A DNA stretch of 64,000 nt from Hydrurus foetidus (GCA_900617105.1 UYFQ01000023.1:372001-436000), one strand, 5' to 3'; shown: positions 2,529 to 63,072, counted from the stretch's first letter. The notes: a model not told the origin generated them from the letters alone. Translations and numbers: made by a program.

Positions 2529-4337
2529 ATGTACACCTACACCGATTTCGACAAAGCCTTCGTCAAAGCCCGCGCCGACCAGTTCCGCGACCAACTGGGC
2601 CGCTGGCAGTCAGGCTTGCTGACGGAAGACGAATTCAAACCCTTGCGCCTGCAAAACGGCTGGTACGTGCAGCGCTACGCGCCCATGCTGCGCGTGGCCG
2701 TGCCCTACGGCGAGCTGAACAGCGCCCAAATCCGCGTGCTCGCCAAAATCGCCCGTGACTACGATGCCCCCGGCGCCAAAGCCCTGGCCGCTACCGGCTT
2801 GCAATTGGAACAACCCATGGCAGGCGGCATCACCGGCGGCTACGGCCACTTCACCACACGCCAAAACGTGCAGTACAACTGGATCAGCCTGAAAGACAGC
2901 GCTGATGTGATGGACTTGCTGGCCAGCGTCAACCTGCACGGCATCCAGACCAGCGGCAACTGCATCCGCAACACCACCACCGACGAACGCGCTGGCGTGG
3001 CCGTGGATGAGATCGTTGACCCCCGCCCTTACTGTGAAATTTTGCGCCAGTGGAGCACACTGCAACCTGAGTTCGCGCTGCTGCCACGCAAGTTCAAAGT
3101 CGCCTTCTCAGGTGCAACGGACGACCGCGCGGCCACCCATTGGCACGATGTGGGGATGCACGTCATCAAAAACGAAGCAGGTGAAGTGGGTTTGCGCGTC
3201 CTGGTGGGTGGTGGCATGGGCCGCACGCCTGTGATCGCCAGCACGATTCGCCAGTTCCTGCCCTGGAACCAGATGCTGAACTACCTGGAAGCCATCGTGC
3301 GGGTCTATAACCGCTTTGGTCGCCGCGACAACATCTACAAGGCCCGCATCAAAATTTTGGTGAAAGCCGAAGGCCAGCGCTTCATCGATGAGGTGGAGGC
3401 CGAGTACAAAGCCATCATCGAACTCGACGGCGCACCCCACACCATCACCCAAGCCGAGTTTGACCGTGTTTCAGCCTGTTTTATGCCTCCTGTGCTTACT
3501 GCACGGGCGCAGAGCGCTACAGAAAAAGTAGCAACTTTGGTACAAGCCGATACCGTCAACAACCCTGAATTCAGCCGCTGGCTTGAGCGCAACGTGGCCC
3601 CGCACAAGAACGCCAGCCTGCGCATCGTCACTTTGTCATTCAAGCGTACGTTCAGCCAAGAGGGTTCCGCCCCCGGCGACGCCAGCGCTGACCAGCTGGA
3701 TGCCGTGGCCGAATTGGCCGATCGCTTTTCCGCCGGTGAAACCCGCGTCACGCACGACCAAAACATCGTGCTGCCTTGGATCAACGCCAGCGACTTGCCC
3801 TCCGTCTGGGCAGAGGCGAAACGCCTGGGCCTCGCCCGCGCCCAAACCCGCTTACTGACCGACATGATCGCCTGCCCCGGCGGCGATTTTTGCTCACTCG
3901 CCAACGCCCGCTCCATCCCCCTGGCTGCAGCCATCACCGAACGCTACCAAGACCTCGACGAGCTGTACGACCTGGGCGAGATCGACCTGCACATCAGCGG
4001 CTGCATCAACTCCTGCGGCCACCACCACAGCGGCCACATCGGCATTTTGGGTGTCGATAAAGACGGCCAAGAGTGGTACCAAGTCACCCTGGGCGGCTCA
4101 GACGGCTCCGTGCTGAGCGGCACACCGGTGGCCGGCAAAGCGGTTGGCCCATCCTTTACCGCAGCCGAAGTGCCCGAAGTGATCGAAGCCGTGCTCAACG
4201 TCTACAAACAAGAGCGCCAAAGCCTGACCCTGGGCGCAGAAACCTTCATAGACACCCTGCGCCGCGTGGGCGCTGAGCCGTTCAAGCTGGCAGCGAACGC
4301 AGCACGCACGTCGACACAGCGGGCTGTGGCGGTTTAA
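2529..4337 (+). CDS. cysI: Sulfite reductase siroheme hemoprotein subunit
   Basis: HFTTRQN, LPRKFK, ACPGGDFC and SGCINSCGHH siroheme/4Fe-4S ligands; cys operon context. Confidence 0.92.
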   Translation: MYTYTDFDKAFVKARADQFRDQLGRWQSGLLTEDEFKPLRLQNGWYVQRYAPMLRVAVPYGELNSAQIRVLAKIARDYDAPGAKALAATGLQLEQPMAGGITGGYGHFTTRQNVQYNWISLKDSADVMDLLASVNLHGIQTSGNCIRNTTTDERAGVAVDEIVDPRPYCEILRQWSTLQPEFALLPRKFKVAFSGATDDRAATHWHDVGMHVIKNEAGEVGLRVLVGGGMGRTPVIASTIRQFLPWNQMLNYLEAIVRVYNRFGRRDNIYKARIKILVKAEGQRFIDEVEAEYKAIIELDGAPHTITQAEFDRVSACFMPPVLTARAQSATEKVATLVQADTVNNPEFSRWLERNVAPHKNASLRIVTLSFKRTFSQEGSAPGDASADQLDAVAELADRFSAGETRVTHDQNIVLPWINASDLPSVWAEAKRLGLARAQTRLLTDMIACPGGDFCSLANARSIPLAAAITERYQDLDELYDLGEIDLHISGCINSCGHHHSGHIGILGVDKDGQEWYQVTLGGSDGSVLSGTPVAGKAVGPSFTAAEVPEVIEAVLNVYKQERQSLTLGAETFIDTLRRVGAEPFKLAANAARTSTQRAVAV

Positions 4338-4354
4338 AGAAACGATTGAAAAAT

Positions 4355-4759
4355 ATGAAACTAATAGCACTCAACGCCCGCCAAGAGGGCGCTATCGAGC
4401 AAACTGAAGTCCAAACCGTGGTGTTGGCCAACGATGCCAATCCTTTAGACCTCGCCCTCGAAGGCGTGCAGCGCATCGAGCTGAATTTCCCCAAATTCAC
4501 CGATGGCCGCGCCTTCAGCCAAGCCTTTTTGCTGCGCCGCCGCCGGGGCTTCACGGGTGAAATCCGCGCCACGGGTGATGTGTTGGTTGACCAGCTGGTG
4601 CAGATGCAGCGCAGCGGGTTTGACACCGCCGTGCTGCGTGCTGATTTGGACGTGCCCGGCATTGACGCCATCATCGAGCGCCAGTTCGCCCGCTACCCGG
4701 CGTTTTACCAAGGCGATGCGGTCAACACCGCACCGCACTTTGCGAAGGAAGCCGAATGA
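4355..4759 (+). CDS. DUF934 family protein (CysI partner)
   Basis: FPKFTDGRAFSQA.LLR...GEIRATGDVLVDQ...RSGFD...FYQ signature; lies directly after cysI. Confidence 0.9.
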   Translation: MKLIALNARQEGAIEQTEVQTVVLANDANPLDLALEGVQRIELNFPKFTDGRAFSQAFLLRRRRGFTGEIRATGDVLVDQLVQMQRSGFDTAVLRADLDVPGIDAIIERQFARYPAFYQGDAVNTAPHFAKEAE

Positions 4760-5532
4760 GCACCGTTGATTTGAACGCCAAAGCCTCCGCCACGTTCGAC
4801 GCCAAACTGGCTGAAACACAGGCTCTGCTTACGCAGGCAGCTACAACTTTTGCAGCCAATGAAGTCACCCAAGCGTCCAGCCTGGGGGCGGAAGATGTGG
4901 TCATCACCCATCTCATCAACAGCCTCCAACTTGACCTGCCCATCTTTGTGCTGGAAACCGGCAAGCTGCACGCTGAGACGCTACAGATTTTAGAGCAGAC
5001 TACGCAGTCTTCACGTGCACCAGTGACGGTTTACCGCCCCAACCCTGAAGCGGTCATCACCTTTGTGAAACGCGAAGGCGAAGAGCCGATGTACAAGAGC
5101 ATTGCGCTGCGCAAAGCCTGCTGCCATGTCCGCAAAATCGAGCCCTTGAACCGTGCGCTGGCCGATAAAAAGGGCTGGATCACCGGCCTGCGCCGTGAGC
5201 AATCGGGGGCGCGTGCCGACGTTCCCTTGACCGATGACAGCGAGCTTGCCACCACGGGCCGCCTCAAATACAACCCCCTGGCCAACTGGACATGGGGGGA
5301 TGTATGGCATTACATCAAACTGCATAACGTGGCCTACAACCCACTGCACGACCAGTTTTTCCCCAGCATCGGCTGTGCGCCTTGCACCCGCGCCATCAGC
5401 ATGGGAGAAGACTTCCGCGCTGGGCGCTGGTGGTGGGAGGATGAGAACGCCAAAGAATGTGGCTTGCACGTCAAAGCCGAAGGCACTGAAGCTGTTCAAA
5501 TCAGCAGCCTTTCCGAAAGAACCCCCGCATGA
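4756..5532 (+). CDS. cysH: APS reductase (Fe-S type CysH)
   Basis: CCHVRK, ITGLRREQS, SIGCAPCT and GRWWWE..KECGLH motifs. Confidence 0.93.
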   Translation: MSTVDLNAKASATFDAKLAETQALLTQAATTFAANEVTQASSLGAEDVVITHLINSLQLDLPIFVLETGKLHAETLQILEQTTQSSRAPVTVYRPNPEAVITFVKREGEEPMYKSIALRKACCHVRKIEPLNRALADKKGWITGLRREQSGARADVPLTDDSELATTGRLKYNPLANWTWGDVWHYIKLHNVAYNPLHDQFFPSIGCAPCTRAISMGEDFRAGRWWWEDENAKECGLHVKAEGTEAVQISSLSERTPA

Positions 5533-6488: not shown

Positions 6489-6494
6489 GGCGCT

Positions 6495-6515
6495 GCGCTA
6501 AAGTAGCTTTAGCGC
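6495..6515. promoter_or_regulatory. Perfect 9-bp inverted repeat upstream of the TA module (operator or hairpin)
   Basis: gcgctaaag-tag-ctttagcgc. Confidence 0.4.
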
Positions 6516-6545
6516 TTGCAGCCACCTCACCCCGGAGTTTTAGTC

Positions 6546-6770
6546 ATGAACACATTTGTCCCTGCTGTGCATTCCAATCCCCAGATTTTGGGTGGAACCC
6601 CCGTGTTCTCAGGCACGCGGGTGCCGTTTCGCATCTTGTTTGAGTACCTGGAAACAGGTGACAGCCTAGATGTGTTCTTAGATGAATTCCCGTCGGTCAG
6701 CCGCGAGTTGGCTGTGGCAGGGTTAGAGCAAGCCCGGCAAGCGGTGTGTCCCAGCTTGGGCCATGCCTGA
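6546..6770 (+). CDS. DUF433 antitoxin
   Basis: NPQILGGTPVFSGTRVP...L..GDSLD.FL.EFP motif; its TGA overlaps the ATG of the next gene. Confidence 0.88.
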   Translation: MNTFVPAVHSNPQILGGTPVFSGTRVPFRILFEYLETGDSLDVFLDEFPSVSRELAVAGLEQARQAVCPSLGHA

Positions 6771-7102: not shown

Positions 7103-7110
7103 CAATAACC

Positions 7111-8493
7111 ATGAACGCTACACAATCCATAGCTTCCCCCGCAGATACAGCAAGTGCTACAGCCTCTATGACCACAACAACATCCCCCCACAACGCCCTG
7201 CGCTTCATCACCTGCGGCTCCGTCGATGACGGCAAAAGCACGCTGATTGGCCGCTTGCTGGTGGACAGCAAATCGGTCTTGCAAGACCAGCTCGCAGGCG
7301 TGCAGCGTGCGGGCGAAACCGATTTGGCGCTGTTGACCGATGGCCTCTCGGCTGAGCGCGAGCAGGGCATCACCATCGACGTGGCTTACCGCTATTTCGC
7401 CACCCCTGACCGCAAATTCATCATCGGCGACGCACCCGGCCACGAGCAGTACACCCGCAACATGGTGACCGCTGCCAGCAGCGCCGATGCGGCCGTGGTG
7501 CTGGTGGACGCGCTGAAACTGGACTGGGCCAACCCCGCGTTGTTGCTGCTGCCACAAACGCGCCGCCACAGCCTGCTGGTGAAGCTGCTGCGCGTGCCGT
7601 CCATCGTGTTCGCTGTGAACAAACTGGATGCCATCGACAGCCCTGAAACTGCGTTCGCCAACATCAGCGCGGCCTTGGAAAAGTTTGCCCAAGAGGCCGG
7701 CATCACCGCCACCGCCATCGTGCCCGTGTCCGCCCTCAAAGGCTGGAACGTGGTGGATGAAAAGCCGGGTTGGTGCAACTACCAAGGTCAGGGGTTGCTA
7801 CAAATTTTGGAGCAATTACCCAACACCCCTGCGGAACCCGATTTGCCCTTCGCCTTCCCCGTGCAGTGGGTGGAAAAATTCTCCGCCAGCGCCGACACCA
7901 GCCAAGGCCGCCGGGTGTTCTGGGGCCGCGTGGCCACGGGCAGCGCGACGGTGGGGCAAGAAGTCATCGTGTTCCCCGGCAATGCAGGCAAAGGCCAAAT
8001 TGCCAAAATCGCCCAAGTCCTTGACCGCGCACGCCGCCCCGGCAACGTGGAATCGACCCAAAGCGCAGGCATCGTGCTTGACCGTGAAGTGGACGTGTCG
8101 CGTGGCGACTGGCTCCTCGCCCACACCGCACAAACCGTGGATGCCGACAGCTTTGACGAACCAGCCCCGACCAGCCTGCAAGGCCAGCGCGAGATCAGCG
8201 CCACCATCGCCTGGATGGACGACGAAGCCCTGGTCGCAGGCCGCGTCTACTGGGCCTTGCATGGTCACCGCTGGGTGAAAGCCAAAGTCAAGCGCATCGT
8301 CCACCGCCTGGACATCAACACGCTGGAAGAGCTGGACGCGACCGAGCTGCCGCCGAACGCCATCGGCCACATCGAGCTGACCCTGCAAGAAGCCCTGGCC
8401 GTGCGCCCTTACGCCGAGTCACGCAGCCTGGGGCAGTTGGTGCTGGTGGACACGGCTTCGCACAAGACTTCGGGTGCGGTGCTGGTGAACTGA
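7111..8493 (+). CDS. cysN: Sulfate adenylyltransferase subunit 1 (GTPase)
   Basis: [36 protein letters not shown] and NKLD motifs; no fused APS kinase domain. Confidence 0.95.
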
Positions 8494-12071: not shown

Positions 12072-14240
12072 ATGGCATCAAAAATTAAGCCTAACCTGTC
12101 TCTTTCGCTCTGTACAAGGGCGTTGATAGCTACGTTTTTTGTAGCACCCTCCGTCTGGGCACAAACCGATGCTGCCCCTGCGGCCGCCATGCTCAAGCCC
12201 ATCACCGTGAACGACCGCAACAGCGCCCCAACCGCCGATATCAGTGGTTTTGGCGATGTGGCACTCAAAGACTTGCCCGCCTCTGCGCTGGTCATCGACA
12301 GCACACAAATGCAGGCCATAGGCGCACGGCGCTTGGCGGATTTGACTGCCTTTGATGCGTCCGTCACCGATGCCTACAACTCGCCCGGCTACTGGGATTA
12401 CCTGACGATTCGCGGCTTCACCCTGGACAACCGCAGCAACTACCGCCGTGAAGGCCTGCCCATCAGCGCTGAAACCTCCATTCCCCTGGAAAACAAAGAG
12501 CGCGTAGAAATCCTCAAAGGCACCAGCGGCATCCAAGCGGGCACCAGTGCGCCGGGTGGCTTGGTGAATTACGTGGTGAAACGGCCCACCGAAAACAACC
12601 TGCGTTCAGCCCGCATCGAGTTCACCAGCCGCAGCAGCGTGCTGACGGCGCTGGATTTGGGGGGTCGCTTGGGTGTGGACAAGGTGTTTGGCTACCGCTT
12701 CAACGTGGCGCACGAGGAAATGCGCCCCCTCACCCGCAACATCAACGGTCACCGCAATCTGGTCGCCCTGGCCGCCGACTGGCGCATCAGCCGCGACACC
12801 GTGGTTGAGGCCGAACTGGAATGGAGCCACAAAGTGCAGGCCAGCCAAGCGGGTTTCAGCCTGTTGGGCAACACCCTGCCCGCCCCTGTTGACCCCCGCC
12901 TGAACCTGAACAACCAGCCTTGGTCACAGCCCTCGGTGTTTGACGCGCTGACGGGCACGCTGCGCATCGAGCAAGCCATCAACAGCGACTGGCGTTGGTC
13001 AGGCCAATTGGGCAGCCAACGCCTGCGCACAGATGACCGGTTGGCCTACCCCTTTGGCTGCGATGCCGAAGGCAATTACGACCGCTTCTGCTCGAACGGC
13101 ACGTACGATCTTTACGATTTCCGCAGCGAAAACGAACGCCGCACACAGCAAGCGGCCAGCGTGAAGCTGAAGGGCAAGTTCACCACGGCGGGTATTGCAC
13201 ACGATGTGAGCTTTGGGTTGATGCAGAGCCAAGTTAAAAACCGTTTCCAGGTGGGCGCGTACAACTACGCAGGCACGGGCAACATACAAGGCACTCTGGT
13301 CACCCCTGCTGACCCCAGCCAGACAGACCAAAACACCAACCGTGATGAGCGCACACTGGAACTGTCCGCCTACGACGCAATCCGCTGGACACCGCGTCTG
13401 AGCACATGGCTGGGCCTGCGCAGCACCAGCCTGACCCGCGACAGCATCCGCACCAACGGCTCACGCGCTACGCATTACGATGCCAGCATCCTCACGCCTT
13501 GGCTGGCAGCCAGCTACGCACTGAACCCCACTTTGCAGGCCTATGCCAGCTACGGCGAAGGCGTGGAATCGCACATCGTACCGAACAAGGCTTCGCAGTA
13601 CAGCAACCCCGGGGTGGCGCTGCCAGCGCTCAAATCCCGTCAATTAGAGGTTGGATTAAAAGGCGGCACAGCAAACCTGGGCTGGCAACTGACGGCCTTT
13701 CGCATAGCCCGCCCCATGAGCAACCTGGATGCCTGCAACCGCTTGGGTATCTCGCCATGCCTGGGTGCGTATGACGGCCAAGCCGTCCACAAAGGCTTAG
13801 AAGCCAGCACCCAGTGGGCGCAAGGCCCGTGGCGTGTGAACGGTGGCATCACCCTGCTCGATGCCCGTCGCCAAGGCAGCACTCTTGAGCCCACAACCAA
13901 CGGCCAGCGCCCGACCAACGTGCCCAACTGGGTGTTGCGCAGCCAGGCGGCTTACCGCGTGGCCAGCGTACCGGGCTTAGAGCTGCAAGGCCGACTGCAA
14001 CACGAAGGCCAACGCGCCGTGCTGCCCGACAACAGCATCACCCTGCCCGGCTGGACGCGCCTGGACGCCAGCCTGCGCTACAGCACCCAAATCGGTGGCA
14101 CCCGCACCACCTGGAGCGCGGGCATCGACAACGTGGCAGACAAGCGTTACTGGAAAGAATCGCCTTACCAGTTCGGCCATGTCTACCTGCTTCCCGGTGC
14201 ACCACGAACTTTTCGCATCGGAATTCAAGCCGACTTGTAA
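12072..14240 (+). CDS. TonB-dependent receptor, TPP-regulated (thiamine or precursor uptake)
   Basis: IRGF, ERVEILKG..G...PGGLVNYV and DNVADKRYW...GAPRTF motifs; downstream of the TPP riboswitch. Confidence 0.9.
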   Translation: MASKIKPNLSLSLCTRALIATFFVAPSVWAQTDAAPAAAMLKPITVNDRNSAPTADISGFGDVALKDLPASALVIDSTQMQAIGARRLADLTAFDASVTDAYNSPGYWDYLTIRGFTLDNRSNYRREGLPISAETSIPLENKERVEILKGTSGIQAGTSAPGGLVNYVVKRPTENNLRSARIEFTSRSSVLTALDLGGRLGVDKVFGYRFNVAHEEMRPLTRNINGHRNLVALAADWRISRDTVVEAELEWSHKVQASQAGFSLLGNTLPAPVDPRLNLNNQPWSQPSVFDALTGTLRIEQAINSDWRWSGQLGSQRLRTDDRLAYPFGCDAEGNYDRFCSNGTYDLYDFRSENERRTQQAASVKLKGKFTTAGIAHDVSFGLMQSQVKNRFQVGAYNYAGTGNIQGTLVTPADPSQTDQNTNRDERTLELSAYDAIRWTPRLSTWLGLRSTSLTRDSIRTNGSRATHYDASILTPWLAASYALNPTLQAYASYGEGVESHIVPNKASQYSNPGVALPALKSRQLEVGLKGGTANLGWQLTAFRIARPMSNLDACNRLGISPCLGAYDGQAVHKGLEASTQWAQGPWRVNGGITLLDARRQGSTLEPTTNGQRPTNVPNWVLRSQAAYRVASVPGLELQGRLQHEGQRAVLPDNSITLPGWTRLDASLRYSTQIGGTRTTWSAGIDNVADKRYWKESPYQFGHVYLLPGAPRTFRIGIQADL

Positions 14241-14264
14241 AAGGGTCAAAAACCACGCTATAAT
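14235..14264 (+). promoter_or_regulatory. Sigma70 promoter of tRNA-Asn
   Basis: TTGTAA-18 nt-TATAAT, 12 nt upstream of the tRNA. Confidence 0.7.
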
Positions 14265-15930: not shown

Positions 15931-15932
15931 AG

Positions 15933-31790: not shown

Positions 31791-31895
31791 AAATGTGCCT
31801 ATTTTCTTGCCTGTAGTGCTTATCTGTAGGGCATAGTGCGCTACAAAAATAAGAGTATTCAATGAAATAGAGTGTAAGCCAGCGGCTCAAGCACC

Positions 31896-33536: not shown

Positions 33537-33650
33537 AAGTTAAAGTTGATTTAAAAAGGCCAATGCTAGAGGCATTGAGCAGAATCGCTATGCATTCAAT
33601 AGCTGTTTACGCCTATTGGATAAGCGTAAACAGACTATTCAATAGAAAGA

Positions 33651-38645: not shown

Positions 38646-39851
38646 CGCCAACCGCTGCAAACGCCACACCCGGTACGCACACCCAACCGCTATCAAAGCC
38701 ATAGCTAAAGACATCCAGTAGACCTGCACAAGCCCGTATTTTTCACTTAATATCCCACCCAGCAGGCCACCCAGCACGCCCGAAAATCCGTAGCCAATCA
38801 CCGAGTACAGCGCCTGCCCTCGGCCCCGCAGCCGCCCAGGGAAATACGCGGTCAGCAGGCTGATGCACACCGCGTGGTGCGCCGCAAAAGTGAGTGCGTG
38901 CAGCGCTTGCGCCAATACAAGCACCCACAGCACAGAGGCGCTGGAAGCCGTCAAACCCAACCTCAGCGCCATTGCCAGCCCGCACACGATCAACCACACG
39001 CTAGGGCTGAGAAGCGGCAACCAGCGGCTTTGGGTAAAGAACCAGCCGATTTCCACGATCACCGCCACCGCCCACATCAGGCCAATCAGCGTTTTGCTGT
39101 AGCCCAGCGAATCCAGGTAAAGCGAAAAGAACACGTAGATGCCGATGTGCGAGAGCACATGAAAAAAGATCGCCGCAAAAAACCATTGCACATGCCGCTG
39201 ACGCAGCACCGGCCACACGGGCAAACGCTCATGCTGAGCAGACACGGCTTCTTTCAAATCAGGCATCCACCACACGCTGGCGACCACAGCCAGCAGCGTC
39301 AGCCCCGTCCACGCAGGAAAGTGATGCATCCCAAAATGCTCAAACCACGCACCTGCGGCAAATACCGTCACCAAAAAACCCACCGACCCCCACAACCGCA
39401 CCCGCCCGTAGCGCCGCGTGTCAATTTGCCCACCCGTGCTGACCAGATGGGCCATCGCCGCTTCGCTCATCGGCATCATCGAACTGGTGTGCGTAAACAC
39501 CACGAACAGCAGCAGCGTCAAACCCACCACGCCCATCGGAAACCACAGCCCCAGCGACAGCAGCAACGCGACGGTGGCGCTGTAGCGCATCAGCTTGACG
39601 CGCTCACCGGTATGGTCGCTGAGCGCCCCCCAGACATACGGCGCGAACAGCCGGGTGGCGGCTTGCACCGATGTCAGCAAGCTGATAGCGACGATGCCAT
39701 AGCCCAGGTCTTTGAGCCACAACGGCAAGTAGGGGTTAAAAAACCCGATGTGTGCGAAATAGCTGGCCGACAGCGCAGCAAAGGGCCACAGCTGGCGACC
39801 GGCAGCCAGGGGGGGTACTCCTGAAGAGACCTTTGAAAAGGAGACTGTCAC
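38640..39851 (-). CDS. MFS transporter (HcaT/MFS_1_like)
   Basis: PYLPLWL, YGRVRLWGS.GF and ALHALTF motifs. Confidence 0.88.
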   Translation of the reverse strand: MTVSFSKVSSGVPPLAAGRQLWPFAALSASYFAHIGFFNPYLPLWLKDLGYGIVAISLLTSVQAATRLFAPYVWGALSDHTGERVKLMRYSATVALLLSLGLWFPMGVVGLTLLLFVVFTHTSSMMPMSEAAMAHLVSTGGQIDTRRYGRVRLWGSVGFLVTVFAAGAWFEHFGMHHFPAWTGLTLLAVVASVWWMPDLKEAVSAQHERLPVWPVLRQRHVQWFFAAIFFHVLSHIGIYVFFSLYLDSLGYSKTLIGLMWAVAVIVEIGWFFTQSRWLPLLSPSVWLIVCGLAMALRLGLTASSASVLWVLVLAQALHALTFAAHHAVCISLLTAYFPGRLRGRGQALYSVIGYGFSGVLGGLLGGILSEKYGLVQVYWMSLAMALIAVGCAYRVWRLQRLAA

Positions 39852-42890: not shown

Positions 42891-43697
42891 ATGTACCTCA
42901 CCGTCAACCACCACAGCACCTACTGCTACACCGGCGGCAAAGCTTTTGATGCCACCAAGCCCACTGTCGTCTTCATCCACGGCGTGCTGAACGACCACAG
43001 CGTGTGGATTTTGCAAACCCGCTACTTCGCCAACCACGGCTGGAACGTGCTGGCCCCCGATTTGCCCGGCCACTGCAAAAGCGAAGGCGAACCACCCATC
43101 ACGGTAGAGGCCGCCGCCAGCTTCATCCTCGCGCTGCTGGACGCGGTGGGCGCCCCCCAAGCCGCGCTGGTGGGCCACAGCTTTGGCTCGTTGATCGCGC
43201 TGCACACCGCCGCCGTTGCACCTGACCGGGTGACGCATTTGGCGTTGGTGGGTACCGCTTTCCCGATGAAAGTGTCCCCCGCCCTGCTGGATACAGCACT
43301 GAACGCACCGCACCAAGCCATAGCGATGGTGAACCAGTTTTCGCATTCGATGCTCGCCCCGCCACCGTCATCCCTGGGGCCGGGCACCTGGCTCTATGGC
43401 AGCTCACAAGCCTTGATGCGCCGTGTGCTGGCCAGCAACCCCAAAACCAATGTTTTCCACACTGGATTCAAGGCTTGTGATGACTACAAAGACGGCTTAG
43501 CGCATATAGAACGTGTTAGATGCGATATTCTTTTCATAGTGGGCAGTGAAGATCAAATGACACCACCGAAAGCCGCACAAACGCTGATCGCCAAAGCCCG
43601 CCAATCTCAAGTCGTCACCCTGCAAGCTGGGCATTCGCTGATGTCGGAAGCGCCGGACGGGGTACTTTTTGCGTTGCGTGATTTTTTGAACCGTTGA
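42891..43697 (+). CDS. Alpha/beta hydrolase
   Basis: FIHG, DLPGH, GHSFG nucleophile elbow and AGH motifs. Confidence 0.9.
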   Translation: MYLTVNHHSTYCYTGGKAFDATKPTVVFIHGVLNDHSVWILQTRYFANHGWNVLAPDLPGHCKSEGEPPITVEAAASFILALLDAVGAPQAALVGHSFGSLIALHTAAVAPDRVTHLALVGTAFPMKVSPALLDTALNAPHQAIAMVNQFSHSMLAPPPSSLGPGTWLYGSSQALMRRVLASNPKTNVFHTGFKACDDYKDGLAHIERVRCDILFIVGSEDQMTPPKAAQTLIAKARQSQVVTLQAGHSLMSEAPDGVLFALRDFLNR

Positions 43698-43707: not shown

Positions 43708-46305
43708 CTAAAACGCCCGCTGCCGAAAGGCCAACACCACTTGGTTGCGCAACGTTCCCATCAGCGCCAACTCTTTCGCCCCCAGAGGCAATGCTGAAGA
43801 CTCCGCAGTGCCTCGGTCAGCGTAAATTACCCCTAGCGGTTGGGATTTGAGGTGCAGCGGCAACATCAGCACACTGTTAGCCCCCATAGATTTAAGTCTC
43901 CATGTGGGCAGCGCATCCGTCGGGTGCCGTGTCAAATGACTGGCCACATCAGGTAGCCACAGGTCGTCGCCTTTGATGATGGTCGCCGTGAACAAATCAC
44001 CGCTATCGTCCATAGCGAGACGTAAACGGCCTGGATCTTTGTCGCCCAAAGGGGACGCACCAACGGCAATACAGCCCACCAGTGTGTTCGATTTGGCCTC
44101 GCGTACACAGAAAATAACTTGCCTGAAACCTGCGGCTTGCTGCAAAGTATGCAACACGCTCAGCACAATGGTATTGAGTTTGAACGGCTCTAGCAGGCGA
44201 TGGGCCAAATCTTGGACACCTGTGGCGAGCAGCTCTTGACAAGTCTGGCGCTGCAACTCCGCAGTGCGCACAGGCGCTGATGTGGGTACGGCAACCACTG
44301 GCTGCGGCACCAACCCCAAACGGTGCGCTACGTGGCTGTGTTGCATGTCCATGCGCAACAGTTGCAGCAATTGCGAGGTTGCCACAGCAGCCACCTCGAG
44401 CGCCGCCATGACTTCTTTGGTGGTCAAGGCTAACGCCTTGGCGTAGCGCTGGCTGGCCACCGTCAGGGCAGCGTGCTGGCGAGCTGCGCTGGGCTGCACC
44501 CAGGCACTGGCCAGCTCCGTCGCGAACGCACTCAAAGTGCGCAGCATCTCGGTGTGGTTACCGGGTGTAGGCACTGCTGTCACGGTGCTCAAGGACATGG
44601 CATCGTCAGCACTGACGTCCTCCACCACGGCACGCATGCTGCGCCACACGGCTTCCGGTAGACCCCACGCTTTAGCAACACCAATGCCCAAAGCATCGCA
44701 GCCCAGACCCAGAACTTGGCGAACGACACGGTCACGTTGGGTGGCAGCACTGCTCAAAGCGCCAGAGGATGCGGTTTGGCACAACCGGTCAATCTCAGCC
44801 GACTCTTCGGGGAAGTAATGGTGCAGAAGAACCTCACCCAGGCGGTGAAAACTGCCACAGATAAAGACCTCTTCGGCATCACGGTCGCGCAAGCCTGACA
44901 GTTCCCGCGCCAAGGTTCCACTGAAGTGGGCCAGCAGGCGATCGTCCAGCAAACGACCAGCATGGGCTTTGTCTTTGTTCGGTGCCAACAGTGGCAATGA
45001 GGTGGCAGCGGTGCGCACCGCTGCGTAGCCCAGCAGCTGGATGGCGCGTGACACGGTGCTGACCGCACCACCCCCAAAGCTGCGGTGCGCGGCCGAATTC
45101 ACCATGCGCAGCAGCTTTTGCGTGACGGCCATATCACCTAGCACCGCCTCGGTCAGCACGGTCAGGTTTTGTCGATCAGAAGAGGACAAACGGTTGACCA
45201 GCACCAGAGATTCAGCCAGCGCGGGGAAGTCACTTTTGAAACGAATGCGCCGTAACAAAGCCTCCAGCGCCACGGCTTGGGCAGTAGCGGAGACGACAGC
45301 CCCAGCGCGTCCACTGGCCAAACCTGATGAGCTGAGTGCATCGCCTTCAAACTGAGCCAACGAAGGATTTGCCCAACCCGTCAGGGCATCAACCAAATCC
45401 ACCATGCAGGCATAACGCAGCGCTGGGTCACGGGCCAGGGCTCGGCCTATGACGGCACGCAGACGATCGTCCACCGGGTAGGGAGTGATGTCGGGCAAGG
45501 CGATGTCGGTGTTCACCAAAAAATGGATGGCGGCAAAACCGGAATCCCCCGGCACGGCGCGCCGTCCGGTCAGCATTTCAAACAGGATCAAGCCCGCAGA
45601 AAACACGTCCATCTGCGAGGAAACGCGGCCATGCTGGATGTATTCCGGGGCCATGTAAGCGGGGGTTCCAACCAAAGCGTGCGGGTCGGCGGCATCGTCG
45701 AAAATACTGTCACTCACAGCAGCCTGTGCGCTGGCATTGGCGCTGACCTCGTCGTCACTCACTTGGCGCACAGCAATGCCAAAATCCATCACCCGTGCCA
45801 TGCCGCGCCGGTCCATCAAGATGTTGGAGGGTTTGAGGTCACGGTGAATGACATTGTTGGCGTGCGCATAGGCCACAGCATCCAGCACCGGCAGCAACAT
45901 TTTGACGGCAAGCGACGGCACCAGTGCGCCCTGCAGGCGCAGCACTTCGGCCAGCGTGGGGCCAGACACGTACTCGAACACCAAATACGCACTGCTCGCC
46001 CTTTGCCCATTACTTTGCTCATTCACCGCATCGTCTTGCGTCGCATTGACGGCTTCAAACACCGGGATGATGGCCGCGTGGCTCAACCGACTGACGGCGC
46101 GAGCCTCATTGAGCAAAGCCTTGGCCGTGTCCGCTGAGCCACGCAGGGCTTTCAGTGCCACCTCGCGGTGCAGCTGCGGGTCAAACGCGAGGTAGACCAC
46201 GCTTTGCGCGCCCTGCCCGAGTTGCCGCACGATGTGAAACCGGCCCAACGTGGACGGCAACTGCGGTGCAGCAGACAAGGGTAATGGTGCAGAATTAGCT
46301 ATCAT
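43708..46305 (-). CDS. Hanks-type Ser/Thr kinase fused to HDOD and a C-terminal GAF-like domain
   Basis: LGQGAQSVVY, VALK, HRDLKPSN, DFG and GTPAYMAPE; then HDOD motifs KLLRMVNSA..STVSRAI.LLG; then GVIYAD. Confidence 0.88.
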   Translation of the reverse strand: MIANSAPLPLSAAPQLPSTLGRFHIVRQLGQGAQSVVYLAFDPQLHREVALKALRGSADTAKALLNEARAVSRLSHAAIIPVFEAVNATQDDAVNEQSNGQRASSAYLVFEYVSGPTLAEVLRLQGALVPSLAVKMLLPVLDAVAYAHANNVIHRDLKPSNILMDRRGMARVMDFGIAVRQVSDDEVSANASAQAAVSDSIFDDAADPHALVGTPAYMAPEYIQHGRVSSQMDVFSAGLILFEMLTGRRAVPGDSGFAAIHFLVNTDIALPDITPYPVDDRLRAVIGRALARDPALRYACMVDLVDALTGWANPSLAQFEGDALSSSGLASGRAGAVVSATAQAVALEALLRRIRFKSDFPALAESLVLVNRLSSSDRQNLTVLTEAVLGDMAVTQKLLRMVNSAAHRSFGGGAVSTVSRAIQLLGYAAVRTAATSLPLLAPNKDKAHAGRLLDDRLLAHFSGTLARELSGLRDRDAEEVFICGSFHRLGEVLLHHYFPEESAEIDRLCQTASSGALSSAATQRDRVVRQVLGLGCDALGIGVAKAWGLPEAVWRSMRAVVEDVSADDAMSLSTVTAVPTPGNHTEMLRTLSAFATELASAWVQPSAARQHAALTVASQRYAKALALTTKEVMAALEVAAVATSQLLQLLRMDMQHSHVAHRLGLVPQPVVAVPTSAPVRTAELQRQTCQELLATGVQDLAHRLLEPFKLNTIVLSVLHTLQQAAGFRQVIFCVREAKSNTLVGCIAVGASPLGDKDPGRLRLAMDDSGDLFTATIIKGDDLWLPDVASHLTRHPTDALPTWRLKSMGANSVLMLPLHLKSQPLGVIYADRGTAESSALPLGAKELALMGTLRNQVVLAFRQRAF

Positions 46306-47556
46306 TTATGCAGCAATAAATTCAGGTAATGGAAGCACATCACGCAACTTAAGGAGAGAGAGATGGGCATTGTCCCAAAAATTTTGCACCGCGCAGTCAG
46401 GGAGGATAAGCAGCCGCTCCACCAACCCGGCAAGCGGTGTGGTGTCCACATTGGCCAGCAGCACCAAACGGGCTTCAGGCATGGTGTCTGAGGGTTCAAG
46501 GATGCCGATCCAGCCCAGTGCGAACAAGGCTTCGAGCACAGGTTCCAGCTGCACCTGCTCGACTTGCAGGGCACCAGCCAGCTGAGCACGTGCTAGGTGA
46601 GGAAGATGCGATTGCGTGCGCTGGTGCAGCGCTTGTAAAACTTCCAGCGCCAGTTGAAACGGCCAGCCCGGCGTACCACCCCGCCGCGCCACCCCTGCCA
46701 GCAGGCTGGGTAAATACGCAGCCAGCACCGCACCCAACAGCACAATGACCCACACCACATAGACCCACAACAGCAGAATTGGAAAAGTAGCAAATGCACC
46801 ATACACCGCGCTGTAGGTAGGCACCGAAGCCAAATACAGGGCCAACAGCTTTTTGGCCAGCTCAATGCCCACAGCAACGAACACACCACCTGACCCAGCG
46901 TGTACCCACTTCACCTGAGTGTTCGGAACGTAGTAAAACAAAGCGGCCATACCTGCTGCCACCAGTCCAAACTCCAACGTATTCACCACAAACTGCAATA
47001 CATCCGTACCACCGCCCACAACATGACCCACGGCGCTGGAAGATGCTGTCAGCAGGTACGAGGTCATCGTCAAACTGGCCCCCAGCAGCAGTGGCCCCAG
47101 CGTCAACCCGGCCCAGTAAATCAGCACCCGTTGCGCCAACTGACGGGGACGTTTCACACGCCAAATGGTGTTGAGCGTGCGGTCAATCGTCAAAATCAAC
47201 ATCAACGCGGTGGTCAACACGCTGACAAAGCCCACCAGCCCCAGTTTGCCGGCTTTGCTGGAAAACTGTGACAGATAGCCCAACACTTGGCGAGCAATGT
47301 TGTCAGGAATCAAACTTTCAATCAGCCACTTTTGCAACACAGTTTGCAGTGTGGCAAACATCGGAAAGGCGGTGAACACGGCCAGCATCACCGTGAACAA
47401 CGGCACCAGCGCGAGCATGGTGGTGAAGGTGAGGCTGCTTGCAGTCAGGCCCAGTTGGTCTTCACGAAAGCGTTGGCGCAGCGCAAAAGCGGTGTTGCGC
47501 CAGGGGAAGTGGGCCAGGGTGTGGCGCAGGTCATGGATAAAAACAGAGAACTTCAT
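46306..47556 (-). CDS. YihY/virulence factor BrkB family inner membrane protein
   Basis: ASSLTFTTMLALVP, LNTIW, YVPN and YGAFA.FPI motifs. Confidence 0.9.
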   Translation of the reverse strand: MKFSVFIHDLRHTLAHFPWRNTAFALRQRFREDQLGLTASSLTFTTMLALVPLFTVMLAVFTAFPMFATLQTVLQKWLIESLIPDNIARQVLGYLSQFSSKAGKLGLVGFVSVLTTALMLILTIDRTLNTIWRVKRPRQLAQRVLIYWAGLTLGPLLLGASLTMTSYLLTASSSAVGHVVGGGTDVLQFVVNTLEFGLVAAGMAALFYYVPNTQVKWVHAGSGGVFVAVGIELAKKLLALYLASVPTYSAVYGAFATFPILLLWVYVVWVIVLLGAVLAAYLPSLLAGVARRGGTPGWPFQLALEVLQALHQRTQSHLPHLARAQLAGALQVEQVQLEPVLEALFALGWIGILEPSDTMPEARLVLLANVDTTPLAGLVERLLILPDCAVQNFWDNAHLSLLKLRDVLPLPEFIAA

Positions 47557-48095: not shown

Positions 48096-49514
48096 ATGAA
48101 CACACTGCTCACCACCCTCGCCCACATCGTCGGCCCCGCCCATGTCTTGGAAGCATCAAAGCAAGACCTGACCCCCTGGGAGCAAGACTGGCGTAAACGT
48201 AAACCTGGCAAAGCGCTTGCTGTCGTTAGGCCCAGCGCTACCAAAGAAGTAGCAGATGTCGTCAAAGCCTGCGCAGCAGCAGGTGTCAGCATCGTGCCCC
48301 AAGGCGGCAACACGGGTTTGGTGGACGGCTCTACGCCAGACAACTCGGGCACACAAATCGTGCTGAGTTTGCAGCGCATGAACCAGGTGCGGGCCATTGA
48401 CGGGGCCAATCTGACGATGACGGCGGAAGCAGGCTGCATTTTGCAAACGCTGCAAGAAACCGCCCGCAACCAAGACTTTTTATTCCCCTTGAGCCTCGCG
48501 GCCGAAGGCAGCTGTACGCTGGGCGGCAACCTGGGCACCAATGCGGGGGGCACGCAGGTGCTGCGCTATGGCAATGCACGCGAGCTGTGCCTGGGACTGG
48601 AGGTTGTGACGGCGCAGGGTGAGGTATGGAGTGGCCTCTCGGGTCTGCGCAAAGACAACACCGGCTATGACCTGCGCGACCTGTTCATTGGCAGCGAAGG
48701 CACGCTGGGCATCATCACTGCTGCGACGATGAAGCTTTACCCGCTGCCCGCTGCCCGTTTGACCGCCTGGGCCGCCGTACCCTCGTTTGACCATGCGGTG
48801 ACGCTCTTGGGGCTGGCGCACCGGCATTTGGGTGCCGGGTTGACCGGGTTTGAGGTGATGGGCCAGTTCGCGCTGAGTTTGGTGACCAAGCATTACCCGC
48901 AGCAGCGCGTGCCGCTGTACCTGGACACGCCTTACTGCGTGCTGCTGGAAGCCAGTGACCACGAATCAGAAACCCACGCCCGTGCGTTGTTTGAGCGCTT
49001 GCTGGAAGTGGCACTGGAGCAAGAATGTGTCACCGATGCGGTGGTGGCTGAGAACATCGCCCAGTCCAAGGCGCTGTGGCATATCCGCGAAAGCATTCCG
49101 CTGGCGCAGGCCGATGAAGGGCCAAACATCAAGCATGACATCTCCGTCGCCGTGTCGCTGATTCCTGAGTTTGTGCGGGTGGCTGAAGCCAGACTGGCAC
49201 AAGCGCTGCCCGGCGTACGTCTGGTGAATTTTGGGCATTTGGGCGATGGTAATTTGCATTTCAACGTGCAAGCGCCTGTGGGGGGTGAGGCGCCGGCCTT
49301 TTTGCTTGACCACGAAGAAGCGGTCAACGCCATCGTTTACGACACGGTGCAGCAGTTTGGCGGCTCCATCTCTGCCGAGCATGGCGTGGGCGGGCTGAAG
49401 GTGGACAAGCTTCCGCATTACAAGCCAGCCGTCGCGCTAGAGATGATGCGGGCCATCAAACGCGGCCTTGATCCGCAAAACCTGATGAACCCTGGGCGCG
49501 TGGTACGTGTTTGA
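48096..49514 (+). CDS. FAD-linked oxidase (GlcD/D-2-hydroxyacid dehydrogenase-like)
   Basis: PQGGNTG, TNAGG, KDNTGYDL, GSEGTLG, GHLGDGNLH and SAEHGVG motifs. Confidence 0.92.
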   Translation: MNTLLTTLAHIVGPAHVLEASKQDLTPWEQDWRKRKPGKALAVVRPSATKEVADVVKACAAAGVSIVPQGGNTGLVDGSTPDNSGTQIVLSLQRMNQVRAIDGANLTMTAEAGCILQTLQETARNQDFLFPLSLAAEGSCTLGGNLGTNAGGTQVLRYGNARELCLGLEVVTAQGEVWSGLSGLRKDNTGYDLRDLFIGSEGTLGIITAATMKLYPLPAARLTAWAAVPSFDHAVTLLGLAHRHLGAGLTGFEVMGQFALSLVTKHYPQQRVPLYLDTPYCVLLEASDHESETHARALFERLLEVALEQECVTDAVVAENIAQSKALWHIRESIPLAQADEGPNIKHDISVAVSLIPEFVRVAEARLAQALPGVRLVNFGHLGDGNLHFNVQAPVGGEAPAFLLDHEEAVNAIVYDTVQQFGGSISAEHGVGGLKVDKLPHYKPAVALEMMRAIKRGLDPQNLMNPGRVVRV

Positions 49515-50204: not shown

Positions 50205-51032
50205 ATGACCCACCCCACCCGCACCCAATACGAAGACTTCATGCGCCTGGTGTACACCCAGGGTGTCAACAAAGCTGACCGCACCGGCACCGGCACGCAA
50301 AGCGTGTTCGGCCACCAAATGCGGTTTGACCTGAACGAAGGCTTTCCGCTGGTGACGACCAAAAAAGTCCACCTCAAATCCATCATCCAAGAGCTGCTGT
50401 GGTTCCTCACTGGCAGCAGCAACAACAACTGGCTCAAAGAGCGCGGCGTGTCGATTTGGGACGAATGGGCGGCGGCCGACGGTGAACTTGGCCCCGTCTA
50501 CGGCGTGCAATGGCGCTCTTGGCCCACACCGGACGGTGGGCACATCGATCAGATCACCGACGTTATCAACACCCTCAAAACCAACCCCGACAGCCGCCGC
50601 ATCATCGTAAGCAGCTGGAACGTGGCTGATTTGAGCAAGATGGCGCTGATGCCCTGCCATGCGTTCTTTCAGTTCTATGTGGCGCCTGCGGTTGAAGGCG
50701 CAAAAGCTCGCCTCTCGTGCCAGCTTTACCAGCGCAGCGCAGACATCTTTTTGGGCGTGCCCTTCAACATCGCCAGCTACGCGCTGCTCACCCACATGGT
50801 GGCGCAGCAGTGCGATCTGGACGTGGGCGATTTCATCTGGACAGGCGGCGATTGCCATATCTACAGCAACCACGTCGAGCAGGTAGAACTGCAACTCAGC
50901 CGTACACCCTACCCCTACCCCACGCTTCACATCAACCGCAAACCCGAGTCGATTTTTGACTACCAGTTTGAAGATTTTGAGGTACGCGATTACTTGCATC
51001 ACCCGGCCATCAAAGCGCCAGTAGCTGTTTAA
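50205..51032 (+). CDS. thyA: Thymidylate synthase
   Basis: DRTGTGT, ELLWFL, PCH and [14 protein letters not shown] motifs. Confidence 0.97.
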
Positions 51033-51044
51033 TTTATAGCAATC

Positions 51045-51637: not shown

Positions 51638-52252
51638 ATGTCTTCAGGCGGTTTTCACGTCCACGGCCCCCACGACCACGAACTAGAGCACGCCGCACAA
51701 GGCGGCCACGATGACCACGGCAGCCAGCATGGCGACGCGCACAAAAGCAGCGGCATGACGGCGCAAATCGCCGTTGTCACAGCCGTCATCGCGACGGTAG
51801 GCGCGCTGTTCTCGTACATGGGCGGGGCCACCCAGGCCAACGCGGGTTTACTCAAAAACGACGCTGCCATCAAGAAAACAGAAGCCTCCAACCAGTGGAA
51901 TTACTTCCAATCCAAGAGCACCAAGCAATCGCTGTCTGAGCTGGCACGCGACTTGGCCCCTGAAGAAAAGAAAGCCATCTACCAGGCCAAGATTGAGCGC
52001 TACGAGAAAGAAAAAGGCGAGATCAAAGTACAGGCCGAAAAGCTCGAAGCCGAATCCACCGCCAAAGACCATCAAAGCGATGAGCAAATGCACCAGCACC
52101 ACCGCTGGGCGCAGGCCACCACGGCACTGCAAGTCTCCATCGCCTTGGCCGCTATGGCGCTGCTGACCAAAAAGAAATGGTTGGAGTACGGCATGTTCGG
52201 CTTAGCCGGACTGGGTATTGTGGTCGGTGGGCTGGCTGCGCTTCATATTTAA
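51638..52252 (+). CDS. DUF4337 family membrane protein
   Basis: His-rich N-terminus; ASNQWNYFQSKSTKQ motif; three TM segments. Confidence 0.82.
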   Translation: MSSGGFHVHGPHDHELEHAAQGGHDDHGSQHGDAHKSSGMTAQIAVVTAVIATVGALFSYMGGATQANAGLLKNDAAIKKTEASNQWNYFQSKSTKQSLSELARDLAPEEKKAIYQAKIERYEKEKGEIKVQAEKLEAESTAKDHQSDEQMHQHHRWAQATTALQVSIALAAMALLTKKKWLEYGMFGLAGLGIVVGGLAALHI

Positions 52253-52320
52253 TAGCACACTACACATATGAAATAAGCGTAAAGTGGTTAAAAGGCTTTT
52301 AAAAATTGCCCTCAATCACC

Positions 52321-61832: not shown

Positions 61833-61860
61833 GCGGCATGTAAATCAAGTAAACTGCTAT

Positions 61861-62847
61861 TTATTTTATAGCTATAACCACTGAATTTAAGGGCGTTAAA
61901 GCCGTATTCTTCGTCAAATACCCAATCAGGTTATCCGCCGCCAAATTCGCCATCGCCAAACGTGTGGGCACGGTGGCGCTGGCAATGTGGGGGGTCAGCA
62001 CCACGTTGCTCAGCGCGAGCAAATCGGGGTGGACTTTCGGCTCGCCTTCGAACACGTCCAGGCCAGCAGCGGCGATGCGTTTGTCTTTCAGGGCTGCCGC
62101 CAGCGCCACGTCATCGACGATGCCGCCTCGGGCGATGTTGACCAGGCAGGCGGTGGGCTTCATCAGGGCCAGCTCGGCGGCAGCTATGGTGTGGTGCGAG
62201 GCGGCGCTGTACGGCACGACCAGCACGATGTGGTCAGCCGTTTTCAGCAGGGTTTCTTTGCTGACGTAACTGGCTTTACAGTCGGCTTCCAGCGCTGCGT
62301 CCAAGCGGGAACGGTTGTGGTAAATCACGTTCATGCCAAAGCCATGTGCGCCACGTTTGGCGATGCCCTGCCCGATGCGGCCCATGCCGATGATGCCCAA
62401 AGTGCTGCCGTGGATATCCGAGCCGCTGAACATGTCGTAAGACCATTTCGTCCACAGCCCGGCACGCAGGTAGTGCTCGCTCTCGGTCACGCGGCGGGCC
62501 GTGGCCATCAGCAGCGCAAAGCCAAAATCAGCGGTGGTTTCGGTCAGCACATCGGGGGCATTGGTGCCAAGCACGCCAGCGGCGGTCATCGCGTCCACAT
62601 CAAAATTGTTGTACCCCACGGCCATGTTGGCGCAGATTTTGAGGTGCGGCGCAGCGGCCAGCACCTCCGCATCAATGCGCTCGCTGCCGGTGGTGAACAC
62701 CCCCACCTTGTCCGCGAGCTTCGCCGCCAACTGGGCTTTGCTCCACACCTCATCGGATGGGTTGGATTCCACCTCGAAATGCTCAGCCAGTTTGGCAATG
62801 ATCTCAGGGAAGATGGCGCGGGCGACGAGGATGCGGGGTTTGGTCAT
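61861..62847 (-). CDS. D-2-hydroxyacid dehydrogenase (glyoxylate/hydroxypyruvate reductase-like)
   Basis: GMGRIG, NIARG, LDVFEGEP and TPHIASA motifs. Confidence 0.92.
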   Translation of the reverse strand: MTKPRILVARAIFPEIIAKLAEHFEVESNPSDEVWSKAQLAAKLADKVGVFTTGSERIDAEVLAAAPHLKICANMAVGYNNFDVDAMTAAGVLGTNAPDVLTETTADFGFALLMATARRVTESEHYLRAGLWTKWSYDMFSGSDIHGSTLGIIGMGRIGQGIAKRGAHGFGMNVIYHNRSRLDAALEADCKASYVSKETLLKTADHIVLVVPYSAASHHTIAAAELALMKPTACLVNIARGGIVDDVALAAALKDKRIAAAGLDVFEGEPKVHPDLLALSNVVLTPHIASATVPTRLAMANLAADNLIGYLTKNTALTPLNSVVIAIK

Positions 62848-63072
62848 GAAATCACCTTGTTGTTCAGGATACATATGCGGGAGCAGCTACTGAATCAGGA
62901 GCATTAAATCAGAAGCGGTGGGGCTTGTCTGTGGGGCGGGCATCATTGGGAGGCACTCGCCAGAGGATTCCATGCCGCGTTTATCGCGTACTCTACAGAT
63001 TATTTTTCTGCACTTGCAAGGTGCATTGCGCGAGGCCGCTTACGTCACCCTTCCCCTTCCTGAAAGCCCTGA

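Follow-up and report, generated by a model that had tools for sequence, protein, structure and literature searches.

Dispersed, sequence-specific sites that organise bacterial chromosomes are known from several systems, namely MatP/matS, SlmA/SBS, Noc/NBS, ParB/parS and FtsK/KOPS, with SlmA and Noc stemming from regulator or partition folds. Here, we describe a dispersed element of about 64 bp in a 64,000-nucleotide stretch deposited for Hydrurus foetidus (GCA_900617105.1, UYFQ01000023.1:372001-436000), in the following called the window and numbered from its first letter, whose genes are Comamonadaceae-like and, more precisely, Rhodoferax-like (its CysD is 89–93% identical to Rhodoferax and Albidiferax loci). 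We propose, with a probability of roughly 0.6, that the palindromic core of this element is read by a conserved single-copy HxlR/DUF24-like protein, which would have turned from a local autorepressor into a chromosome-wide binder organising or insulating DNA at gene ends. As in the case of matS, SBS, parS and KOPS, a dimer of regulator fold would meet a dispersed palindrome with sites also located in genes; the present element differs, however, in showing neither regional restriction nor replichore polarity in the two complete genomes sampled, in an about tenfold higher number of sites and in a 47-bp lineage-specific tail.

DNA uptake sequences (DUS) of Neisseria and uptake signal sequences (USS) of Haemophilus accumulate in place by substitution, including within codons, combine a core with phased A/T tracts and form lineage dialects. 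In contrast to these, the element described here is mostly intergenic and has a palindromic core that matches a regulator operator. The MarR/DUF24 regulators HypR, YodB, CatR and QsrR, as presented in the consulted sections of PMC3351151, share with our candidate protein the small winged-helix fold, an inverted-repeat operator with an A/T-rich centre and a copy of it at the own promoter. They differ in the operator itself (a 7-2-7 repeat for HypR), in the redox-sensing, conserved N-terminal cysteine of HxlR/DUF24 regulators, which the Comamonadaceae orthologue lacks, and in having few promoter sites instead of hundreds of mostly 3'-end sites with a long tail.

Repetitive extragenic palindromic (REP) sequences, BIMEs and REPINs with their RAYT/TIRYT proteins (consulted sections of PMC3733652, PMC6006769 and 10.1101/119735) likewise reach hundreds of copies at stops and in convergent gaps, some of them in frame, and a single-copy HUH gene often with an adjoining copy is found in both cases. 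However, the present element shows no general hairpin, no GTAG-plus-stem unit and no dimers, arrays or young copies, and the HUH gene is present even where the element is absent; the main text of PMC3733652, in the parts consulted, does not mention the Comamonadaceae genera searched for. A further dispersed repeat, the BRE of Bordetella and other Betaproteobacteria, also occurs in Comamonadaceae and sometimes in genes, but with about 90 bp, 69% GC, a tandem arrangement and at most 29 copies per genome it differs by description, the only level at which the two were compared (PMC3110155, in part).

Whether the element had been described before was a question left by the first-pass annotation of the window, and the answer is twofold. 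Tong, Schliekelman and Mrazek (2017; PMC5217627) list pieces of it among unexplained spaced motifs: the second dyad described below is their GCTTAT(N)5AAGCG of Acidovorax ebreus (114 copies), core and tail are linked in ATAGCT(N)22CAAAAG of Polaromonas naphthalenivorans (125 copies), and GCTAT_ATAGC at distance 7 is given for A. ebreus (89) and Rhodoferax ferrireducens (101). In the parts of this source consulted, a convergent bias like the one reported here is given for spaced motifs, but the motifs stand as separate pentamer pairs, and the assembled element, the protein, the in-gene sites, the phages and the evolution of the sites are absent. In our literature search, with subscription journals outside its coverage, neither the assembled element nor an HxlR link was found to be described; we regard the position of the core before HxlR/DUF24-like genes as new and the fragments as already known.

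Materials and methods

Genome-wide tests were made in Comamonadaceae relatives of the window. Exact cores (GCTAY-N7-RTAGC) were counted per genome in a family sample of 401 Comamonadaceae genomes, and two complete genomes, G003 and G409, were sampled as 16 and 20 evenly spaced 20-kb pieces, respectively. Full elements were searched with a matrix of 69 columns, trained on 143 of 203 candidate sites, all from genomes other than the window. Core scores of single sites were obtained with an operator matrix, tail scores were set against a null with a 99th percentile of −7.7, and the gene positions underlying the counts of convergent and divergent gaps came from a simple, purpose-written gene caller.

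The core as predicted operator of an HxlR/DUF24-like protein

The starting point for the candidate protein was a three-core cluster in the core-poor genome G123, which flanks a small winged-helix gene. A search with this protein gave 12 loci, all of them with a core upstream (11 exact). Distant HxlR/DUF24-like paralogues were taken from a phylum sample of 301 genomes (14 loci, after removal of 7 orthologue loci) and from plasmids (5 of 15 matches; Ralstonia, Nitratireductor, Sphingopyxis, Pseudoalteromonas and Embleya). Of these 19 loci, 17 have an exact core no further than 200 bp upstream, and the remaining two have cores with one and two mismatches; the cores are usually paired, 19–34 bp apart. 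Since the 14 source genomes hold only 2–15 exact cores each in 3.4–8.8 Mb, chance placement before the paralogues is negligible. The core very likely represents the operator of this HxlR/DUF24-like subfamily, which is found across Proteobacteria with paired GCTAC-N7-GTAGC predicted operators (L455-L480, L401-L405); several of the loci adjoin carboxymuconolactone-decarboxylase-family genes.

The Comamonadaceae orthologue is encoded by a single-copy gene, is at least about 60% identical across the family, and was present in 112 of the 114 core-rich genomes (at least 40 cores), in 28 of 33 with 11–39 cores and in 30 of 254 with 0–10 cores. It was not found in seven core-poor genomes of the cysD set (two Limnohabitans, one Hydrogenophaga metagenome-assembled genome (MAG) and four loosely labelled MAGs). 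In 21 of 27 loci a core precedes its gene (13/13 core-rich, 8/14 core-poor genomes), and a TATAGT-like hexamer about 17 bp behind the right half of the core, seen in many of these loci, suggests that the core serves as operator over a predicted −35 box. At this own operator a positive tail, on the upstream side, was detected in 9 of 13 core-rich and in none of 8 core-poor genomes; of 17 sites tested in core-poor genomes, 16 lack it.

The protein scores 26.8 bits for the domain PF01638 (curated cut-off, 20.8), and its structural model (pLDDT 83.6) resembles YodB and QsrR, with YodB as top Foldseek match (E 2e-4). No invariant or near-invariant cysteine was present in 26 sequences. Its gene often has a MarR gene upstream and an FKBP gene downstream, in core-rich and core-poor genomes alike; close core pairs as markers of partner genes were uninformative, with only three in five genomes. 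The gene is not part of the window, and each of the two runs that contain the window has two orthologue contigs, neither of which is tied to the window.

Occurrence and anatomy of the element

In the 64-kb window, seven exact cores stand against a shuffle mean of 0.01, with none of 100 shuffles reaching seven, and 18 places match the core with at most one mismatch. The 69-column matrix gave 11 matches in the window and none in 30 local dinucleotide shuffles. When the coding DNA (55,059 bases) was shuffled with codons preserved, five exact cores compared with 0.04 expected (maximum 1 in 100 shuffles) and four full elements with 0.03. One-mismatch cores numbered 12 against 4.6 (maximum 10), so that some of these are chance matches. 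Within genes of the G003 pieces, 23 full elements were counted against 0.3 under codon-preserving shuffling; in Rhodoferax-group loci, full elements were enriched (6 vs. 0) but one-mismatch cores were not (15 vs. 15.3).

The first-pass annotation had listed about 17 copies, many of them inside coding sequences, and a weaker dyad CGC-N11-GCG at a fixed offset of 6 nt. All 17 coordinates hold the 17-mers claimed, and 13 of the cores are clearly above chance (score at least 14; shuffle mean, 0.5); the core at 38689 is borderline, however, and those at 4840, 43524 and 4352 are at chance level, even though 4352 and 4840 have good tails. At the 6-nt offset, the tail lies well over the 99th percentile of the null in 11 of the 17 sites, but is marginal in three (38689, 43524 and 51024) and absent in three (7797, 46298 and 48237). 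Copies in genes do exceed the codon-preserving expectation, while several of the listed sites are rather located at gene ends or starts. The second dyad exists, but is better written GCGC-N11-GCGC, with letters that depend on the lineage, and the element extends beyond it to about position 64.

In full, the core occupies positions 1–17 (20 bits) and is followed by the tail (28 bits), composed in this order of TGC, the second dyad centred at 32, GGC at 46–48 and A/T tracts at 51–54 and 62–64. A/T peaks at about 9, 21, 31, 42, 52 and 63, as read from the matrix table, lie about one helical turn apart (about every 10.8 bp), and the letters of the tail differ by lineage in the manner of dialects. 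The spacing is as rigid as initially claimed, with the distal block at offset 0 in 68/68 copies of G409 and 79/79 copies of G003 and no insertions or deletions (indels) across these 147 copies. ATAG occurs internally in 82% of sites, and the ends of the element are asymmetric. The strongest correlations between columns were observed for neighbouring bases (e.g., A-tract versus T-tract), from which we infer shape readout of double-stranded DNA. In some G409 copies (L321, L326, L337 and L338), the second dyad is framed by a core-like half on either side, which makes them fully symmetric; the right half of the core may recur in the tail as a degenerate mirror image. Fis-like or IHF-like readings of the tail would fit only some dialects.

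The core contains T-N11-A (T3 in 98%, A15 in 99% of sites) and its centre lies 23 bp from that of the second dyad, a geometry known from LysR-type tetramer sites, which had led the first-pass annotation to propose such a tetramer on a strong and a weak dyad. We consider this highly improbable: the T-N11-A motif is present as proposed, but the second dyad follows C-N11-G and varies between lineages, and the footprints of the core lead to the HxlR/DUF24-like subfamily. No LysR candidate was found, although no dedicated search for a cognate LysR protein was made; a protein of this type may instead read the tail.

One copy invites an interpretation at the RNA level. At the full element directly 3' of the ilvI stop (33587..33650, forward strand), the second dyad forms a hairpin that covaries, here alone: both sides have changed in 7 of its 10 pairs, 88.9% of cells pair compared with 22–42% in slid registers, and the window copy folds with z = −6.5. 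Together with a weak covariation among paralogous copies in G409 (+0.47 pairs), this would speak for a hairpin acting as terminator or mRNA stabiliser. Such a function is, however, hardly credible for the element as a whole, as 32 of 40 compensated pairs come from the ilvI site alone, covariation is missing in G003 (−0.22) and in the core, the other five window copies tested fold no better than shuffles (z −0.9 to +0.3), and the Rfam scan of the window reported at gathering score only ilvH, tRNA and the TPP riboswitch, none of them on an element. A general RNA hairpin was consequently rejected except at ilvI, where the structure appears to be a local co-option of the second dyad. The ilvI hairpin (L295, L299, L301, L303, L305, L309, L311, L312) and the Rfam ilvH motif (33467-33534) lie about 50 nt apart, and this copy of the element may be part of the ilvH RNA element.

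Distribution over chromosomes, genomes and phages

Among the 401 genomes, at least 40 exact cores were counted in 114 (40–732, the maximum being 732), at least 100 in 90, 11–39 in 33 and 0–10 in 254. Core-rich named genomes belong to Rhodoferax, Albidiferax, Xylophilus, Paracidovorax and Ottowia, few cores were found in Variovorax, Comamonas, Ramlibacter and Curvibacter, and about none in Hydrogenophaga, Limnohabitans and outgroups. In the sampled pieces of G003 and G409, sites occur throughout the chromosome and in both orientations; the regional restriction relative to origin or terminus considered in the first-pass annotation was not seen in these 16 + 20 pieces, nor was a replichore polarity among 34 oriented sites of G003. 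Low-GC pieces are poor in copies (0–1 in L102, L105 and L335).

In G409, a site was present in 20 of 27 convergent but only 10 of 43 divergent gaps (P 5e-5), and in G003 in 13 of 24 versus 6 of 40 (P 0.002). Intergenic sites mostly lie within 25 nt of a stop codon (45/67 in G409, 39/52 in G003), and only 7 of 78 and 22 of 80 sites, respectively, lie wholly in genes, in about 86% coding sequence. The earlier statement that the copies are largely outside promoters is thereby confirmed. An ordinary, very large regulon of the winged-helix protein at nearby promoters would agree with the use of the core as a normal operator by the paralogues and with the 10/43 and 6/40 divergent gaps that do hold a site; yet most sites stand behind stops, in convergent gaps or in genes and in both orientations, and no common theme emerges among the genes next to sites in core-poor genomes, which renders a regulon distinctly improbable.

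The element also reaches phages. On viral contigs, 41 of 119 matches score as full elements, and 34 viral records searched with a stricter pattern hold 0–4 sites each. Phage genes with sites encode terminase subunits, Cro-like repressors, primase, a RecE-like exonuclease, methylases and DarB-like proteins (54 of 138 open reading frames (ORFs) scanned). In these phages (L340-L398, L481-L535), elements recur at the C-termini of Cro-like repressors and terminases, and three lie in two giant virion or DarB-like genes. Similarity searches of plasmids and phages returned three and no records, respectively; the plasmid result, from a query with approximate coordinates, carries little weight. A role as prophage attachment site was rejected, the only contig with matches at both ends having a terminal repeat without element. 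In Comamonas phosphati (L019, 9850-11080), a different, GC-rich palindromic repeat is found at the cys junctions where Ottowia has the element.

These observations bear on another reading, in which molecular drive has enriched the element as a self-marking or uptake-type signal, DNA bearing it being favoured in uptake, protection or recombination. Such a signal would account for the accumulation in codons above the codon-shuffled expectation and against codon bias, the lineage dialects, the presence in phage genes, the scarcity in low-GC pieces and a decay to GC-rich codons in the genome G388. We nevertheless regard it as quite unlikely, as the core matches the operator of a cytoplasmic-type regulator subfamily, coding DNA and divergent gaps are strongly avoided, and our search found no literature on uptake sequences of Comamonadaceae.

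Evolution of the sites

In a comparison of ten genomes of one genus with the window, 421 comparisons between orthologous places were made, of which 391 showed the site retained and 22 showed it absent. One loss was the G388 decay, with the peptide kept; another was a clean 63-nt deletion. Divergence at core and A-tract positions is below that of 4-fold sites, and at variable positions above it. The second dyad also diverges faster than 4-fold sites, with a comparable figure for the tail (5.2 vs. 4.3 differences per 23 nt), and we do not read this as targeted rewriting of the dyad.

Copies within a genome share a mean pair identity of 0.53–0.57 with maxima of 0.83 and 0.91, so that near-identical young copies are missing. 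Identity among G003 copies equals the Markov null (0.725 vs. 0.719), and in G409 it lies slightly above the null (0.71 vs. 0.683 ± 0.006). Since sites inside genes align without gaps and copies are no more alike than the null in G003 and only slightly more in G409, stepwise formation in place is favoured; old insertions at gene ends would be a compatible alternative in these alignments. No close pair of empty and filled site was found, the 22 absent-site comparisons being too divergent, no element-sized clean deletion appeared among the matches listed to contigs of close relatives in four runs, and the phage terminase regions are too divergent to tell insertion from overwriting. The asymmetric ends, the lack of terminal inverted repeats and the missing young copies agree with the earlier judgement that this is not a recent miniature inverted-repeat transposable element.

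Alternatively, the element could be a non-autonomous repeat of REP/REPIN type that owes an ancient spread to the family's single-copy TIRYT-type HUH nuclease, captured a regulator operator and is now kept by the host. Sites 3' of stops and in convergent gaps are as described for REPs (PMC3733652, in the parts consulted), a copy or core half was read by eye 3' of the HUH gene stop in 17 of 20 core-rich genomes, and the dialects, the 63-nt deletion, near-consensus phage copies and the slight similarity excess in G409 would all suit copying. However, the HUH gene, with its own GGGGWSA-type inverted repeats, is present in genomes with almost no cores, three core-rich genomes have no copy beside it, and where a copy exists it lies only on the 3' side. 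Together with the missing young copies, the Markov-like identity in G003, the gap-free sites inside conserved domains, the constant length of the 147 copies, the lack of hairpin covariation among G003 copies, the five of six window copies that fold no better than shuffles and a tail that seems to have been added in place onto an older operator, this makes the repeat scenario unlikely. Moreover, the characteristic terminal GTAG/CGTC tag with stem-loop was not found in the element, and the HUH gene is neither flanked by the repeat on both sides nor restricted to genomes that have it. RAYT/TIRYT proteins as sole driver were rejected: a family search detected them in 38 of 43 genomes whatever the core count, with that of G032 found by protein query. 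The TIRYT-like HUH gene itself is conserved in single copy across Comamonadaceae with the flanking GGGGWSA inverted repeats on which its TIRYT-like label rests (L269-L293, L314-L317), and downstream of it lies what is presumably a sigma-54-like promoter.

Proposed mechanism, weak points and significance

On the basis of these comparisons, a dimer of the HxlR/DUF24-like protein very probably binds the core and reads its A/T spacer by shape, and it would probably repress its own gene via the core over the predicted −35 box; because of this negative autoregulation, the protein level would follow the number of sites. We lean towards sites arising in place by stepwise substitution, with the core first and the tail later, and being kept by selection. 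On balance, a second partner that bends or wraps DNA may well have left its footprint in the tail with its phased A/T tracts, and gain or loss of this partner would explain orthologue-bearing lineages with few sites. The weakest step is the architectural function: following the twin-domain supercoiling model, the bound sites could act where transcription ends and positive supercoils collect, which we put forward tentatively. Of the earlier proposal of a genome-wide site for a chromosome-organising protein, the rigid, genome-wide site in double-stranded DNA has held up, while the organising role is still a matter of interpretation.

Several points weigh against the proposal. Promoter avoidance alone could produce part of the gene-end bias, and site counts per 20 kb are Poisson-like instead of evenly spaced. 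The orthologue was not found in the core-rich genomes G024 and G424 (the latter outside the 401-genome sample), and in G011 it is split over two frames (C1:1687347-1687647, L413) despite 113 cores, either by sequencing error or by recent loss. As 30 genomes with the orthologue have only 0–10 cores, it is necessary at best and not sufficient. Its presence largely follows the Comamonadaceae clade, so that any clade marker would show a similar profile, and the profile counts ignore kinship, with no tree correction. Among 14 core-poor genomes, 6 have no core before the orthologue gene, and 4 of the 13 core-rich genomes have no tail at its own operator. With the operator matrix, the second dyad obtains negative scores (best −8.4 at +22/+24), and the winged-helix protein hence does not explain the tail. 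This matrix, used also for the per-site core scores, is only partly independent, and the upstream footprint search used the known core pattern and not de novo motif discovery. Finally, the orthologue contigs could not be linked to the window contig, and the 63-nt deletion and the G409 similarity excess fit copying.

In its most far-reaching form, the proposal would make this ligand-free descendant of an HxlR-type repressor a sequence-specific nucleoid protein of Comamonadaceae, which together with a partner wraps DNA over about 64 bp at the ends of hundreds of genes and whose sites were written in place into intergenic DNA, coding genes and resident phages and repeatedly gained and lost. We hold this to be possible, at somewhat less than even odds. 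If true, a transition from transcription factor to chromosome organiser would be traceable with the ancestral, intermediate and derived states all surviving in sequenced genomes, namely paralogues with two sites, orthologues with few bare cores and lineages with 100–700 tailed sites. A candidate reader can now be named for a very abundant motif of a major freshwater, soil and wastewater family, and a predicted operator for an uncharacterised regulator subfamily across Proteobacteria. As a DNA signal that would shape protein sequence, codon use, gene starts and stops and phage genes, the element also matters for annotation and for estimates of selection.

Sites and neighbouring genes of the window

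Beside the ilvI copy, several sites lie in the cys region. A full element with exact core (3516-3532) and leftward tail occupies 3469..3532 on the reverse strand in the cysI linker (core score 24.6, tail score 9.7), whose length equals that of several site-free orthologues. Over the start of the DUF934 gene, a weak core with a good second dyad (4352..4415, forward strand; 7.1 and 1.8) is conserved in four related loci. The gene cysH contains a one-mismatch core (4840) with tail (4793..4856, reverse; 9.6 and 6.7) and, in its conserved PAPS-reductase domain, a full element (4980..5043, forward; 18.4 and 10.3), which aligns without gaps to orthologues lacking the site and uses the rare Leu codons CTA and TTA. 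The full element at 7117..7180 (forward; 17.7 and 14.0) encodes the N-terminus of CysN and is found at the same place in ten related loci, while a core without tail at 7797..7813 (core 25.2) inside cysN aligns gap-free to orthologues lacking the site and is also present in L003. Between cysD and cysN, about 630 bp (6481-7111) are absent from close relatives in three runs and hold two small adjoining ORFs (~6546-6770 and ~6770-7102); this segment looks like a recent insertion, possibly of a toxin-antitoxin-sized pair.

Downstream of the TPP riboswitch, a full element (12082..12145, reverse; 22.6 and 8.3) lies at or just before the N-terminus of a TonB-dependent receptor. It is followed by a 19.7-kb stretch without any element (12146-31792), near the start of which (14277-15249) a tRNA and then a DDE_Tnp_1_5 transposase fragment are located. 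The next element (31793..31856, reverse; 15.0 and 2.7) is situated at the start of a CDP-alcohol phosphatidyltransferase gene or shortly before it. At 38689..38752 (forward), an exact core with a weak tail (10.9 and −3.5) covers the C-terminus of an MFS gene, and the doubtful site at 43524..43540 in an alpha/beta-hydrolase gene (8.3 and −7.0) is probably a chance match.

Cores without tail are present at the junction of a BrkB-domain and a kinase gene (46298..46314; 17.1) and, as an exact core, in an ORF without established family (48237..48253; 17.3). The thyA/folA junction carries a core whose weak tail lies in thyA (50977..51040, reverse; 18.5 and −7.4), and an element lies in the convergent gap after a DUF4337 gene (52240..52303, forward; 20.7 and 5.0). 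The stop of the 2-hydroxyacid dehydrogenase gene, before rmuC, is covered by a full element (61856..61919, forward; 21.7 and 17.3) and the start of the 2-hydroxyacid dehydrogenase gene by a further element (62839..62902, reverse; 15.1 and 9.9).

Apart from the element, ilvC appears cut (31963-32879), with a 241-aa ORF limited to the N-terminal KARI domain and followed by a short ORF, which would reflect a frameshift, a pseudogene or an assembly error. Two different leuA-type isopropylmalate synthase genes form a tandem pair at 19750-23013, and the region 55228-60210 encodes a 1660-aa DUF4347/Listeria-Bacteroides-repeat protein with an IPTL-CTERM sorting motif.

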